Virus record (IMG/VR): IMGVR_UViG_3300032227_000993
DNA: 64,000 nucleotides
Direction: 5' to 3' (one strand)
DNA from: a virus
Taxonomy: Duplodnaviria > Caudoviricetes
The notes beneath the pieces were generated by a model. That model did not search any database. It was given only the letters and a program-made list of their open reading frames with translations, and had not been told where the DNA came from. Below, piece after piece: positions 3,506 through 14,728 of the stretch. The position numbers were made by a program, and so were the translations under genes. Each line of letters starts with the position of its first letter. Position 1 is the first letter of the stretch.

Positions 3506-4693
3506 TTAACGGTAAAAAAGATTTTCTACATAACCAGTAGAAATGGCCACAAAGGCGCCTTGATTGGCTGGGGGTACTGGATAAGCTGCTGGGTTTATTC
3601 CGCCGGATGGAATTGGCCAATAACCAGAACCACCAGTTAGGACCTCAATGCTGTCTACGGTTCCGTAACCAAGACCGGCCTGTGGGTGACCGGGTGGGTA
3701 TGTTTGGCTCATAATGGCACGGGCAGTTGCGCCAGCGCCATCACCCAAGATACTGATTTTTGGAGGTGCCAAGTAACCAGCGCCACCGTTGGTCACTTCA
3801 ATTGACGTTAGTACCCCATTGTTACATACAGCATAGGCCACAGCCGGAACACCCGGTGGAGTTGGCGTAGCAAATATTGAGCTATTGAAACATAAACGTA
3901 ACAATGGATACCATCCCTCTACGTTCAGATAGATAGTTTTTGTTTCGTTGTAATAGGTAGTACTTTCAGAAATATTACGCCAAACACTCTGATAATTTTC
4001 TGCCCATTGCGCTTTGATGGTTCCTGTGTACTGATCAAGATCCATTTGAATTGTGGTCAGTGGCGAACGTGGAGCAATAAAACTTGAGTAGAATTCTGTA
4101 TTGAGCCACGAGTTGTAGTAGGTGCCATCACCGTCGCCATTCCAATATGGATTTCCTGCCCAGTCTGGCCAATTCTGTGGGCCAGCGCCATCAACTGATG
4201 CTTGTGCTGTTAATTTAATTGTGGGAATTGTAAGCGGAGTGCTAGGTACAAACCGTGGAAATACTGAATTTACTAAATCTAACGGAGCTCTTGCTCCAGA
4301 TTGTGCGTTAGTAAATACAGCTTGGTTTAAATTACCGCTGGCACAAGTAATTCCATAACTGGCCGGCTGTGCTTGAATTTCTAACAGGTCGCTGGCTGGA
4401 ATAGTAACCTTGACTTGTCCTGTAAGAGAGTTAAGAATTACCATGTCATATTCTAAAAGAATAACTGTTCCTGCCTGATTCATTACTCGGAATTTAAAGG
4501 CACTACCAGTTACATTTACTGGTTTTTCGTCTTGATTTACAAAGGCAAATAACAATACATTGTCAATACCTAGGTTAATTGTTAGTCTTTTTGCGTACAC
4601 TGGGTTATACCTTGCTGTAAAAAATTGCCCGCTTGAATCTAACAGTAATACCTGTGTCCGTTGTTGATAGAGGTAGGCTGTGGTAGAATACAT
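3506..4693 (-). CDS. putative virion structural protein (beta-rich, baseplate/tail-like)
   Basis: 395-aa ORF; C-terminal IEVTNGGAGYLAPPKISILGDGAGATARA motif typical of phage tail/baseplate proteins; TAAATA late-type motif upstream. Confidence 0.5.
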   Translation of the reverse strand: MYSTTAYLYQQRTQVLLLDSSGQFFTARYNPVYAKRLTINLGIDNVLLFAFVNQDEKPVNVTGSAFKFRVMNQAGTVILLEYDMVILNSLTGQVKVTIPASDLLEIQAQPASYGITCASGNLNQAVFTNAQSGARAPLDLVNSVFPRFVPSTPLTIPTIKLTAQASVDGAGPQNWPDWAGNPYWNGDGDGTYYNSWLNTEFYSSFIAPRSPLTTIQMDLDQYTGTIKAQWAENYQSVWRNISESTTYYNETKTIYLNVEGWYPLLRLCFNSSIFATPTPPGVPAVAYAVCNNGVLTSIEVTNGGAGYLAPPKISILGDGAGATARAIMSQTYPPGHPQAGLGYGTVDSIEVLTGGSGYWPIPSGGINPAAYPVPPANQGAFVAISTGYVENLFYR

Positions 4694-4760: not shown

Positions 4761-5141
4761 ATGGCCAACGAAATCTTTGATAAACTAGCAGACAAATACC
4801 CGTTTATAACGCTGTGTGTTTACGCCTCCACAGAATACGTAGGAATCATACAAAACCGCGATGATGCTATTACTACAATATACGACTTTGGTAGCATCAG
4901 CGATTTGGAATCTAAAAAGAAATTTTTAGAATTAGCCAATATTTGGTGGTGGGAAAGCAATCGTAGTATTCCTATCAATATCTTTTTAAAGCAAGAATGG
5001 GATCCGTTTAAGTTTTGTATTCGCACCTTTGCCAACAAGGATTTAGAGGTACTACACGGTCCTGTTTGCAGTCTAGCAGAAATGTCTCGTAAAAAGTCCA
5101 AGCGTAAATCTATCACACTTGTACGTCGGATGCCTGACTGA
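4761..5141 (+). CDS. hypothetical phage protein (126 aa, WWWES motif, basic C-terminus)
   Basis: ORF track; own TAAATA motif; protein-like composition. Confidence 0.7.
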   Translation: MANEIFDKLADKYPFITLCVYASTEYVGIIQNRDDAITTIYDFGSISDLESKKKFLELANIWWWESNRSIPINIFLKQEWDPFKFCIRTFANKDLEVLHGPVCSLAEMSRKKSKRKSITLVRRMPD

Positions 5142-5694
5142 GCAAGTTCATATGTAATGCCACCAACGCCGCATAAGAGATCGAATGCGAGTGTTTAAAA
5201 GTAAACCCTTTGCTGCTATCTCCGTCCCAAACTGTGGCAAAAACTTCAGACCAAGGACGATTCTGTAGGTGTGCTTTGCCTGGTCGAATGATCGCAATAA
5301 ATGCCGCCATCCTGGTGATACTATCCGGTTTCATGACAGCCAACAAGTCTGTGTAGTTGCCAACGTGTACCAGCTGTTTTGCCCACTCTGGGTCTGTCCA
5401 TAGCCGGCTCCAATCGGGCTCTTGACTTAATAATTGCTCATATTGTTCTTGAGATTTAATTAACTGGTACACGGACATATTAAGCAAATCAATTTTAAAG
5501 TAGCCACGTTTCTCTGCTTCTTCGTAATCTATGGCGGCGCATTGATTAACTGGATCATACGGAATGTCTGTGACATAGACTCCAGAATTATGACGACGAA
5601 CTGTACCTTGATGCAATTGACGTGCCGGCGTGGCATTAATTAATCGTAATACCTGCTCTCTATCTGGAACGTCAATATCAATATCAGCTGACAT
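5113..5694 (-). CDS. miniature DNA polymerase III alpha (DnaE)-like protein, 193 aa
   Basis: DnaE motifs in the correct order: ADIDID (D4/D6), RHNSGV, GYFKIDLL (D69), IAIIRPGK, FTFKHSHSISYA. Start set at ATG 5694 (TAATG overlap with the upstream stop). Confidence 0.85.
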   Translation of the reverse strand: MSADIDIDVPDREQVLRLINATPARQLHQGTVRRHNSGVYVTDIPYDPVNQCAAIDYEEAEKRGYFKIDLLNMSVYQLIKSQEQYEQLLSQEPDWSRLWTDPEWAKQLVHVGNYTDLLAVMKPDSITRMAAFIAIIRPGKAHLQNRPWSEVFATVWDGDSSKGFTFKHSHSISYAALVALHMNLLSQASDVQV

Positions 5695-6422
5695 TACCAA
5701 CCTGCTTTCTTAAGTATTTCTTGCGCAAATTGTTGATCTTCGGGATATTCTCTAAATTTTTTATTCCAAAAGTCTGCGTCAATGTAGGCCCAAATCATTG
5801 CTACTTGTTCTGGTGTGAGTCCTGCTAAAAACTTTTGTCCTGACTCACAGTTGTAAACTACCCAAGGACTGATACGTCCGCCAGTGATAGCATAACACAT
5901 GACGTTGGTATTACCATACCGTAAACAATCTTGACTTGGATGTCTGTGTATTTCTGCCCAGTCAACTGAATATTCGATGGCTCTTGCCAGGGCATCTGAC
6001 ACCGCTTCAATCTTGAGATAGCCCATTAAATATTCTGTGTAAACACTATCCTTGGCCCAGTAATCAATTTTTTTATTTTGTTTTAACAACCACTCAATAA
6101 ATCTTGGTGGGTTGATTGCTTTAATTTCTACGCAATAACGACCAAACTTGACAAAGGCTTTGTAGTATGGCGATTCAGCAAATTCTTCATATGTTTTTTT
6201 CTTAGTAGAACTTTGCGTTAGTTCATAAAATTTCAAGTACGCATGGAAACCTAAGCGAACACCGGGTTCTTCTTTGGACATAAAACGCTTGCGTGGCTCG
6301 CACGAATGTATAGCCAATGACGCTTCCTTAACAAAATCTTTTTTACAATACTGACATCTATATTTCATATCTGTACGTTTGTAAGTTGCTAGGTTTGCGA
6401 TTGCGTTTGCGGCGTCGGTCAT
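5694..6422 (-). CDS. zinc-finger-containing replication protein (possible helicase loader)
   Basis: CQYC...H..C motif near the N-terminus; sits within the replication cluster. Confidence 0.55.
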   Translation of the reverse strand: MTDAANAIANLATYKRTDMKYRCQYCKKDFVKEASLAIHSCEPRKRFMSKEEPGVRLGFHAYLKFYELTQSSTKKKTYEEFAESPYYKAFVKFGRYCVEIKAINPPRFIEWLLKQNKKIDYWAKDSVYTEYLMGYLKIEAVSDALARAIEYSVDWAEIHRHPSQDCLRYGNTNVMCYAITGGRISPWVVYNCESGQKFLAGLTPEQVAMIWAYIDADFWNKKFREYPEDQQFAQEILKKAGW

Positions 6423-8979: not shown

Positions 8980-9771
8980 TTATAATTTTAAAAAGGTTGG
9001 TAATATGTTGTGATGTAAATTATTCTTTATTTGGTCAACATTATCGATCGTTCCTGCTACAATGCCGCCAAATATCTGTTCTACAGTCCATTTGGGTATG
9101 TTCCAATGCTTACACCAACTGTCATGTTGAGTGGGCCACCATTTTTCAAATTCTTCTATAGACGGATTGTCAACCAGGTCAATATCTTCTAGAGCAATAT
9201 GAAGGATGGGACGAAAACTAATCCAGGGCTTGGCTAGTTCGCAAAATCTTTCAAAATTTTCTGGCTCGTTATTTTCCCAGTACAGGTGTGGAGTTTTACC
9301 TAACTCGGCCCATGTAAAAAATACTTCACCTTGCTTTATTTTAGTAGACGGAGTGATCCACGAGTAGTCAATTGGTTTGGTAACTGGTCCGCCGGTTTCT
9401 CTATAGTCGATTGTTAGACAATAACGACGCGGACGATGATAGCGTTCGCACAGGTGAATATGCTCGTGAAACTTTAACCATTTAGGGTCGCCGTTGTAGT
9501 TTTTTTCATAGACAATATGGATAGCATTGAGATAATCTTGGTCTTTACTTTTATTGCGTTCAATAGTTAATCCTAACTCGGCACCATACCTAACTAATCT
9601 ATCATCCAACTCATCATACGAATACAGATCATAATAAAAAGGCGAGTCCCATTCTTGAAACGGAATAGCGACGTGTTGTAAACTCTTACACATCTTTGAA
9701 AATGCTTTGTTGATAGGCAAATCACGCAAGGTAATATCTACAGCAGAAGAGTCAGAAAACAGTAGTTTCAT
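8980..9771 (-). CDS. hypothetical protein, paralogue of 15798..16703
   Basis: Shared motifs DQ..LN.(I/L)H, H.(C/L)E, LG(K/R)T. Confidence 0.75.
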   Translation of the reverse strand: MKLLFSDSSAVDITLRDLPINKAFSKMCKSLQHVAIPFQEWDSPFYYDLYSYDELDDRLVRYGAELGLTIERNKSKDQDYLNAIHIVYEKNYNGDPKWLKFHEHIHLCERYHRPRRYCLTIDYRETGGPVTKPIDYSWITPSTKIKQGEVFFTWAELGKTPHLYWENNEPENFERFCELAKPWISFRPILHIALEDIDLVDNPSIEEFEKWWPTQHDSWCKHWNIPKWTVEQIFGGIVAGTIDNVDQIKNNLHHNILPTFLKL

Positions 9772-12884: not shown

Positions 12885-13337
12885 TTATACCTGAATATCT
12901 TCCATGCCGGCGGCTCTAAGTCGAACAATATGTCCCAACATAAAGTTCTTGGATTCCATGGCCTTCATGATGCCAAGGTACTTATTTCTAAGCAATGCTA
13001 CTTCGTTAATAAGTGTTTCAAAGTCAATTACTTCATCTTCGCCATCCACATACTTTTCAGCATCGCGACTGGTAAGAGCACGAGCATACCCTTCTAAGTA
13101 CTTTTGAAAGTGTCGACGACGGATTTTGCGTAGTTGTATGTTGAGATAGTTTAGTACCGCTTCAATTTCCTGTAGCTGATTAAATCTGTGCTCAGTAATA
13201 CCAGGCAATGCTGTAATATTTTTTTCAACAATTCCACCAACTCTACAGTCGCGGCGAGCTTCTTCGAGCTCATGTTCGTAGTGTGCAATAAAATCTGGGA
13301 TGGAACTTAGGTCAGCTGTAACTTTACTATACCACAT
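12885..13337 (-). CDS. uvsY: recombination mediator UvsY-like
   Basis: Helical 150-aa protein; C-terminal KAMESKNFMLGHIVRLR resembles T4 UvsY; near recA and SSB. Confidence 0.75.
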   Translation of the reverse strand: MWYSKVTADLSSIPDFIAHYEHELEEARRDCRVGGIVEKNITALPGITEHRFNQLQEIEAVLNYLNIQLRKIRRRHFQKYLEGYARALTSRDAEKYVDGEDEVIDFETLINEVALLRNKYLGIMKAMESKNFMLGHIVRLRAAGMEDIQV

Positions 13338-14487
13338 AATTTTCCTTTATACCTAACCATTGTAACATACTTTCAGGGAAGATGTCAAGGTTTAAATTGC
13401 GTCTACGGGCAAATTCCTTCAAGAAGGTCGCACAATTTTCTTGCTGCTTGCGGGTATTGGGAACATACAATGCTTTAATAATTTCGTCCTTGATTGCGAT
13501 ATCGCTGGCAGAAATTTGCTTGGCCAAATGGTCTATTGTATCGCTGTCTAATACATTAATTTGCAAATAGGTAGGATCGTTACAAAAGGTGTAATCAATA
13601 CTGTCGCCATGGGCATTAACAAAATCAACCAGGCCGTGGATAGTTAAATTGCTCAGTACCACGCCAAAAATAATTTTAAATCCTTGCTCGATCAATAAAT
13701 TAAGATTTTTTGTAAAATTTTCATAAGTGTTGCCGTATCGATTGAACTCGTAAAATTTATCAATATTTTCTGCGCTGACTACTACGGTTAAATTATCATG
13801 GTTATTAATTTTACTAAGTTGAGTTTTTAATCTCGAATGGTCAACTCCTAGCCCTGTGTAAAACATAATTTCTTCTGAACCGGTAAGATTGTTTAGTAAT
13901 TCCGGAAAGCTATTGTACAAAAAAGGTTCGCCGCCGGTGATGCAAATATTTTTTACGTTGGTAAATGTTTTAACTTCGTTGAGCACCGTGGCAAATCCAT
14001 CAGTTTGTTGGTGTTCCTTTTGACTAACTTTTAACATTACCCGATCTAACGGTGTTAGTGTAAATTTTGGTGTGTCAAGATATGTGCCGTTGCTAATGTC
14101 ACGCAACCAGGATGAACTGTACTGTTTGTCACAATACGAGCAGGTTAAATTGCAAGTAGATCCTAAAATAATATTTAATTTTTCAGGTTGCGATTCTAAA
14201 ATAGTGTGAGTCCGAGCATTGGTACCGCTTAGTACACGCCTACTAGGTAGCCCTTTGGCTTCTGGTTTCCAGCAGGCAGCCTCGCAACTACTGACTGGGA
14301 TATTGTCAAGCATATCTTGTCGTTCTTGTAACAACAAAGGTGTGTTAAATATTTTTCCAGGATTGTTCTTAAGCCAAGTTAGGTCAATTTTTGAGGGTGT
14401 ACCCATACAACATGAGTAGGTTGATCTTCGTTCAAGATCAACCGTTAGCCATGTAAATTTTTGAGAACAATAAAAATTATTGTTAAT
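13327..14487 (-). CDS. radical SAM protein with N-terminal Cys-rich (twitch/SPASM-like) segment; start uncertain
   Basis: CNLTCSYC (CxxxCxxC), TGGEPF, N-terminal FYC...SCC...CEAAC. The only upstream ATGs lie deep inside the preceding gene, so the start is tentatively placed at ATT 14487. Confidence 0.8.
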   Translation of the reverse strand: MNNNFYCSQKFTWLTVDLERRSTYSCCMGTPSKIDLTWLKNNPGKIFNTPLLLQERQDMLDNIPVSSCEAACWKPEAKGLPSRRVLSGTNARTHTILESQPEKLNIILGSTCNLTCSYCDKQYSSSWLRDISNGTYLDTPKFTLTPLDRVMLKVSQKEHQQTDGFATVLNEVKTFTNVKNICITGGEPFLYNSFPELLNNLTGSEEIMFYTGLGVDHSRLKTQLSKINNHDNLTVVVSAENIDKFYEFNRYGNTYENFTKNLNLLIEQGFKIIFGVVLSNLTIHGLVDFVNAHGDSIDYTFCNDPTYLQINVLDSDTIDHLAKQISASDIAIKDEIIKALYVPNTRKQQENCATFLKEFARRRNLNLDIFPESMLQWLGIKENYVV

Positions 14488-14728
14488 AGTCCTCGTCCTC
14501 TTCGTAGTCCTCTTCGTCGTCTTCTTCCTCATCTTGATGATCTTTAAGATAGTGGGCCAATGCCGCTTTGACAGCAGAATCTGATTTGAATACTGATTTA
14601 ATATCGTCGGCATCGCAATCGTTATCAATTAGTACGCTTACCAATGTTTCTGCTGCTTCATCACGATCTACCACATTGACATGACGCTTGAGCTCGTTCC
14701 AAATTTCTTTAGCTAGTTCAACTGACAT
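14483..14728 (-). CDS. small hypothetical protein with acidic C-terminal tail
   Basis: ORF track; SD GGAGG; ends DEEEDDEEDYEEDEDY. Confidence 0.75.
   Translation of the reverse strand: MSVELAKEIWNELKRHVNVVDRDEAAETLVSVLIDNDCDADDIKSVFKSDSAVKAALAHYLKDHQDEEEDDEEDYEEDEDY

Follow-up and report, generated by a model that had tools for sequence, protein, structure and literature searches.

Can a protein of 193 residues that carries the motifs of a bacterial replicative DNA polymerase act as a polymerase by itself, or is it one piece of a larger enzyme? The question is raised by an ORF in the IMG/VR virus IMGVR_UViG_3300032227_000993, of which a stretch of 64,000 nucleotides was analysed (the window). 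The protein, referred to below as the C-half, reads MSADIDIDVPDREQVL...RRHNSGVYV...GYFKIDLLN...IIRPGKAHL...FTFKHSHSISYAALV, and its motifs are collected in Table 1 together with the gene that precedes it. A first-pass annotation, made from the sequence alone, had listed five motifs in the order in which they occur in Pol III alpha and had described an intact frame coupled by a TAATG overlap; all five are present in that order, the frame is read through and the overlap is there. A TTG codon at position 5700 could be an alternative start of the C-half but finds no support in relatives, where MSADID is conserved as the start.

Table 1. Positions in the window of the C-half gene, its motifs and the gene coupled to it
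Feature	Position	Strand	Description
C-half ORF	5113..5694	(-)	ATG at 5694, stop at 5113-5115; 193 aa, intact
C-half product	5113..5694	(-)	C-terminal subunit of a split minimal Pol III alpha-like enzyme: Mg2+-binding palm strands and reduced fingers
ADIDID, residues 3-8	5671..5688	(-)	DxDxD strand, in which D4 and D6 are metal ligands; E. coli 398/399 is where the structural alignment begins
RHNSGV, residues 34-39	5578..5595	(-)	Palm strand equivalent to the DnaE HAGG strand, after a 2-residue turn from the preceding palm strand
GYFKIDLL, residues 64-71	5482..5505	(-)	Strand that holds K67 and the third catalytic Asp (D69); counterpart of E. coli KFDFLG (539-560, HMM alignment)
IIRPGK, residues 135-140	5275..5292	(-)	Motif of the fingers, counterpart of E. 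coli FRPG (to residue 641; HMM alignment)
FTFKHSHSISYA, residues 164-175	5170..5205	(-)	Motif of the fingers, counterpart of E. coli FNKSHSAAYA (739-769 stretch; HMM alignment)
TAATG	5692..5696	(-)	Stop/start overlap of the C-half with the upstream 242-aa ORF, read in the sequence
Upstream 242-aa protein	5694..6422	(-)	Translationally coupled to the C-half; phrog_11058, E 2.5e-53

Homology of the C-half to C-family polymerases

The C-half matches the PHROG family phrog_11778, annotated 'DNA polymerase' (E 8e-58), while a single-sequence phmmer search against the PDB and a Megablast search of the region against phage genomes each returned no match. Searches with the Pfam models for the Pol III alpha and finger domains, which the first-pass annotation had proposed as a check, gave a divided answer: the finger model PF17657 (DNA_pol3_finger) is matched by 52 of the 88 family members at E ≤ 0.1, but at the same threshold the C-half protein itself matches neither this model nor PF07733. 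The family is represented here by an alignment (A1) of 88 diverse full-length C-half sequences at 27–63% identity. When its profile was compared with 177,635 PDB sequences, the only matches were Pol III alpha chains, namely those of E. coli, Thermus aquaticus and M. tuberculosis (best E 2.8e-6). In this profile alignment, C-half residues 54–139 fall on E. coli residues 539–641, from KFDFLG to RPG, and residues 150–179 fall on residues 739–769, where the E. coli FNKSHSAAYA is met by FKHSH in the C-half.

An AlphaFold2 model of the C-half with alignment A1 as input has a pLDDT of 95.5. The best 12 Foldseek matches of this model are all C-family polymerases, with E-values of only about 2e-3. Structural alignment with VIA-align likewise places C-family polymerases in all of the best 14 positions (Z 6.3–10.0), and the next unrelated fold follows at Z 3.3. 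The alignments include PolC 3f2c (Z 10.0, 187 residues aligned at an rmsd of 3.2 Å, PolC range 970–1296), Taq alpha 3e0d (residues 460–838, Z 9.5) and E. coli alpha 4jom (residues 398–784, Z 8.3). Because the profile matches in the PDB and the gap between these Z-scores and that of the next fold agree, the homology of the C-half to C-family polymerases is real and beyond chance. The earlier proposal of a C-family palm with fingers is thus borne out both by the profile, which found nothing but Pol III alpha, and by the model, of which about 188 residues align at Z 8–10 to the palm and fingers of PolC and DnaE.

In common with DnaE (E. coli 2HNH, 4JOM and 5FKU; Taq 2HPI and 3E0D) and PolC (3F2B and 3F2C), the C-half has the Pol-beta-type palm strands with the DxDxD motif, a third Asp and the lysine of K[FI]D; its fingers keep RPG and F(N/K)KSH. 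Residues D4 and D6 of ADIDID presumably correspond to D401 and D403 in the PDFDVDF of E. coli. Much else is reduced: the C-half is equivalent only to residues ~399–784 of E. coli alpha, compressed into 193 residues. The stretch from the DxD strand (398/399) to residue 539, 140 residues long in E. coli, measures 53 in the C-half, and the finger segment 641–739, of about 100 residues, is cut to about 11.

A turn of two residues connects palm strands 22–28 and 31–40 of the model at the place where the thumb stands in DnaE, and so the thumb is absent; the ~30 residues that had been taken for a shortened thumb region are these two palm strands and their tight turn. Compared with full-length DnaE, the C-half is without PHP domain, thumb, clamp-binding motif, OB fold and tau-binding tail. 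The first-pass annotation was right in this respect about the missing PHP and OB domains and the much-shortened fingers, as the structural alignment covers E. coli residues 398–784 only, with the 641–739 segment reduced.

The other half of the palm

A further difference from DnaE lies at the N terminus. The C-half polypeptide begins directly at the DxDxD strand and is without the helix and G[GS] loop by which this fold holds the incoming triphosphate. Judged from its sequence, the C-half is not a complete polymerase core by itself, because it misses the N-terminal palm half, to which the nucleotide-binding GRGS loop belongs. Its description as a miniature DnaE core therefore stands for the homology of palm and fingers and for the three aspartates, and falls for the core as a whole, the GRGS half of the palm being encoded by a separate gene in relatives.

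Candidates for this missing half (the N-half) were found as separate genes in related contigs. A search with PF07733 (E ≤ 10) identified a stand-alone frame of 178–181 aa in three of five contigs (G001–G005), above the curated cut-off in two of them; the score on the N-half is 26.9 bits, compared with a cut-off of 23.9. With the N-half protein as query, one copy of 175–184 aa was identified in each of five further contigs (G006–G010; 340–525 kb, 95–100% complete). Each of the eight contigs in which an N-half was found (G001–G003 and G006–G010) has one N-half and exactly one C-half, at a distance of ~44–260 kb by contig coordinates. Stand-alone N-halves in related contigs are about 173–184 aa long, carry GVGRGSS and end in EFLR/K. 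Cultured phages account for 96 records with the C-half and 92 with the N-half, and the hosts of the two sets are distributed almost alike; phage Turkey3 has its two genes ~31 kb apart.

The exact point of the split can be read from natural fusions of the two halves. P0188, a metagenomic protein of 375 aa, carries VIGVGRGSSSAS...KEFIK in its N-terminal part and matches the C-half ORF over residues 190–373. Residues 77–180 align with a stand-alone N-half through the last residue of the latter (E 8e-19) and residues 190–372 align with the C-half ORF from its residue 3 (E 2e-36), leaving a linker of only ~9 residues between two colinear gene parts. The match of P0188 to PF07733, the NTPase domain of DNA_pol3_alpha, spans this junction (residues 97–207, E 4.8e-16). 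Two further fused clusters, P0272 and P0273, are 376 aa long. The fusion in these three may be secondary, as the nearest relatives of the fused proteins are ordinary split C-halves.

Taken with the missing GRGS loop, these observations make it probable that the C-half contributes the metal-binding strands and the fingers to a Pol III alpha-like enzyme of two chains, and that it needs the GRGS subunit in trans. Part of the second possibility raised in the first-pass annotation, one piece of a multi-gene split replicase, is accordingly upheld: relatives do have a separate N-half, which supports the split, but contigs G001 and G002 encode a family B polymerase (PolB), which speaks against the word replicase. 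The window itself contains no PolB gene.

We used complex prediction to model the cognate pair of relative G001 (C-half L089:1498-2073 and N-half L086:1198-1716). The pair reached an ipSAE of 0.90, compared with 0.60 for the best control; of 78 solved complexes 51 attained this mark, as did 2 of 108 mismatched pairs. At least 98% of contacts are common to the three runs, and the partner pLDDT is at least 91. In the predicted interface, the DxDxD strand (residues 2–10) contacts N-half residues 134–147, which include GRGS at 141. Since solved DnaE structures hold the same interface within one chain, the predicted pairing may reflect likeness to these single-chain enzymes rather than real binding. 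With no intein at the junction, the two halves most likely assemble non-covalently, and the model predicts one active site built from both chains.

Published system, occurrence and gene neighbourhood

The gene family and its split have already been published. Iyer, Anantharaman, Krishnan, Burroughs and Aravind (2021, Viruses 13:63, PMC7824862) described a split minimal Pol III alpha in the T4-like jumbo phages of group 2.2, among which they name Atu_ph07. Their system is restricted to phages and has two genes far apart: one for the N-terminal protein, which binds the NTP, the other for the C-terminal protein, which binds Mg2+ and the template. It is found together with a family B polymerase and has no other Pol III domains. 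They suggest a role in the synthesis of one strand or in repair, and propose the split enzyme as a model for the ancestral Pol III (PMC7824862). The C-half ORF is the C-terminal unit of this system (PMC7824862) and shows no essential difference from it; the window contributes only another member of the family, a copy from an uncultured freshwater giant phage that is 35–42% identical to the proteins of cultured phages. What is added here to the published account is the exact split point, the rare fused forms, selection statistics, the structural mapping and the predicted heterodimer.

Homologues of the C-half are present in the phages Atu_ph07, PA5oct, RaK2, 121Q and PBECO4. All 96 phage records with a C-half are named as large phages, and among the matches listed 35 of 40 exceed 300 kb; contigs with a related C-half are 340–525 kb long. 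An exhaustive search identified 352 clusters of homologues at 50% identity, and a word-indexed search of metagenomes identified 6,893 clusters at 90% identity. The mini-Pol III is very abundant, is under strong purifying selection by the substitution statistics given below and is kept by giant phages already equipped with a PolB replicase. DNA of the window occurs in freshwater and lake metagenomes, and no RNA run is listed among the public runs that contain it.

The window has genes for DnaB, a Toprim primase, UvsW, UvsY, UvsX, a gp32-like SSB, large terminase, tail sheath and tail tube, and its tail genes are T4-like. Around the C-half the order is UvsW, three small ORFs, the C-half, a small reverse ORF, a tail-fibre-like ORF, primase and DnaB, and this order from UvsW to DnaB recurs in Turkey3, a phage of Escherichia, and in Ettore, a Pseudomonas phage related to PA5oct. 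Scans of the C-half operon for promoter and terminator consensus sequences gave nothing above shuffled expectation.

The neighbours were also considered as further pieces of the polymerase: in protein-atlas searches, the 242-aa and 179-aa ORFs match only unnamed phage families. The 242-aa protein has an N-terminal C2H2-like zinc finger, in which C23, C26, H39 and C41 are invariant, followed by a helical body, and its gene precedes the C-half in a relative too (64% identity). Its model is of moderate quality (pLDDT 71.8) and gave no clear structural match, the best Z being 5.4 and that of the helicase-loader C-domain of T4 gp59 being 4.2. The protein is a conserved neighbour whose membership in the enzyme is only putative.

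Several other genes near the C-half are recorded here as separate observations. A 126-aa ORF (4761-5141 (+), phrog_11637, E 7e-31) is convergent with the C-half, with 29 nt of overlap at the 3' end of the latter; a small reverse gene is found at the same position in Turkey3, Ettore and contig G001. Between the C-half and the primase lies a 395-aa ORF (3506-4693 (-)), an odd occupant of a replication block: its PHROG matches are only to tail-fibre, baseplate and virion-protein families (residues ~280–360), and its counterpart in Turkey3 is annotated 'tail fiber protein'. A 433-aa ORF (13327-14628 (-)) between the UvsY-like and UvsX-like genes has weak PHROG matches to radical-SAM proteins (E 2e-7 to 4e-6), and in L003, a related contig, the UvsW-like helicase is directly followed by a radical-SAM gene that matches Pfam Radical_SAM. 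Lastly, in Turkey3 a gene for a DnaQ-like exonuclease (L001:806-1624; Pfam RNase_T, E 1e-14) is located just upstream of uvsW. The 263-aa ORF at the same position in the window (8980-9771 (-)) was examined as a DnaQ-like exonuclease and rejected, being an unrelated protein with no family match.

A pattern scan also revealed an unsplit class of PHP-less mini-DnaE proteins of ~557–585 aa, at L196:3673-5343 (-) and ~16 other IMG/VR loci (including L182, L188, L204, L206, L225, L245, L258, L260, L266, L279 and L283). Like the C-half, these are phage C-family proteins without a PHP domain, here with GSAGSS, DLPDIDLDF and KIDIL motifs, and the C-half family profile detects them weakly (E 1e-5 to 1e-8 in a small database). 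The class was absent from five related large contigs, four of them at least 95% complete and one 89% complete, and the syntenic flank in relatives has no such gene either. Unlike the C-half, its members are single chains with a ~56-residue thumb insert and a C-terminal extension, and they form a different family.

Putative role and competing explanations

In the mechanism that we propose, the C-half would supply the metal-binding aspartates D4, D6 and D69, the conserved K67, and fingers cut down to RPGK and FKHSH. The N-half, encoded far away and ending (..EFLR) a few residues before the point where the C-half begins, would supply the other half of the Pol-beta-type palm, that is, a helix and the GVGRGSS triphosphate-binding loop. 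Together the two chains would form a heterodimer that polymerises DNA. From the retained finger motifs, the lost processivity modules and the gene neighbourhood, we infer that this heterodimer works beside PolB as a distributive DNA polymerase that copies a template. If it is active, no smaller C-family polymerase core would be known (~365 aa over the two chains), and nature would here have divided one active site over two polypeptides.

The split enzyme is probably not 'the replicase', as both relatives with a match to a family B polymerase (G001 and G002) encode that enzyme. Its role is most likely short distributive synthesis beside the PolB replisome, in the form of primer extension, gap filling or recombination-dependent synthesis; the PolB replicase of relatives and the lack of processivity and proofreading modules both point this way, and the fixed position in the block from UvsW to primase and DnaB would fit such a role. 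A more specific version, which we regard as doubtful, is that the mini-Pol III extends primers made by the primase of bacterial (DnaG/Toprim) type, whose gene lies two genes downstream, and passes them to the PolB replicase. Only the conserved adjacency to primase and DnaB and the absence of processivity modules suggest this. Comparable hand-offs take place from DnaE to PolC in Bacillus and from Pol alpha to Pol delta in eukaryotes. Were it true, the enzyme would be the first C-family polymerase with an active site from two separate polypeptides.

The assembled pair might instead be a nucleotidyltransferase without templated polymerase activity, adding nucleotides untemplated to DNA or RNA ends or making a nucleotide product. 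The Pol-beta-like nucleotidyltransferase superfamily has many non-polymerase members, the C-half has no thumb and has lost a large finger segment, relatives already own a full PolB replicase, and a literature search for activity data found no biochemical report of polymerisation by any member of the split family. We nonetheless consider this explanation improbable: RPGK and FKHSH occur specifically in C-family polymerases and belong to the best-conserved columns, the Pol III finger model of Pfam is recognized in the majority of the family (52/88), and the gene stands in a replication and recombination block near primase and DnaB. A templated polymerase remains the preferred reading.

That the 193-aa C-half is a self-sufficient miniature polymerase, as the title of the first-pass annotation implied, is very unlikely. 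It does keep the three catalytic aspartates and K67 in a compact fold that is confidently predicted, but its chain starts at the DxDxD strand, without the helix and GS loop for the incoming triphosphate. In relatives the GRGS part has a conserved gene of its own, in rare homologues it precedes the C-half within one fused protein, and the predicted interface sets the GRGS loop against the DxDxD strand.

The conservation of the C-half bears on whether it is catalytic at all. Among the 88 diverse homologues of alignment A1, D69, K67 and P138 are invariant, and conservation reaches 90% or more at D4, D6, D8, H35, G38, R137, K140, K167, H170 and A175; in 79 close sequences, D4, D6, D8 and all motif residues are invariant. 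The three aspartates claimed at first are thus kept throughout the family, with D69 invariant and D4 and D6 conserved in at least 90% of the 88. Selection was estimated from the C-half and 78 close IMG/VR relatives, to which it is ~80% identical in protein sequence and from which it differs by mostly saturated synonymous sites. Across 93 C-half pairs with 0.05 < dS < 1.5, the median dN/dS is 0.079 and the maximum 0.245; by this measure the family is under strong purifying selection, and the neutral decay for which a dN/dS check had been suggested is not seen. The idea of a non-catalytic remnant, whether a decaying DnaE fragment, a scaffold or a decoy, could draw on the very small size of the protein and the lack of a Pfam match for this copy. 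It has little to recommend it and we give it slightly less weight still than self-sufficiency, with dN/dS near 0.08 at saturated synonymous sites, catalytic residues invariant in the 79 close sequences and near-invariant across 27–63% identity, and thousands of intact homologues.

Lastly, split DnaE inteins such as that of cyanobacteria are well known, but covalent joining of the halves in this way was rejected from the junction sequences of N-half, C-half and fused P0188 and is the least credible explanation by far: N-halves end in ..EFLR/K with nothing after, the C-half starts with MSADIDID, and the ~9 linker residues of the fused form leave no room for intein halves and contain no intein-type junction residues.
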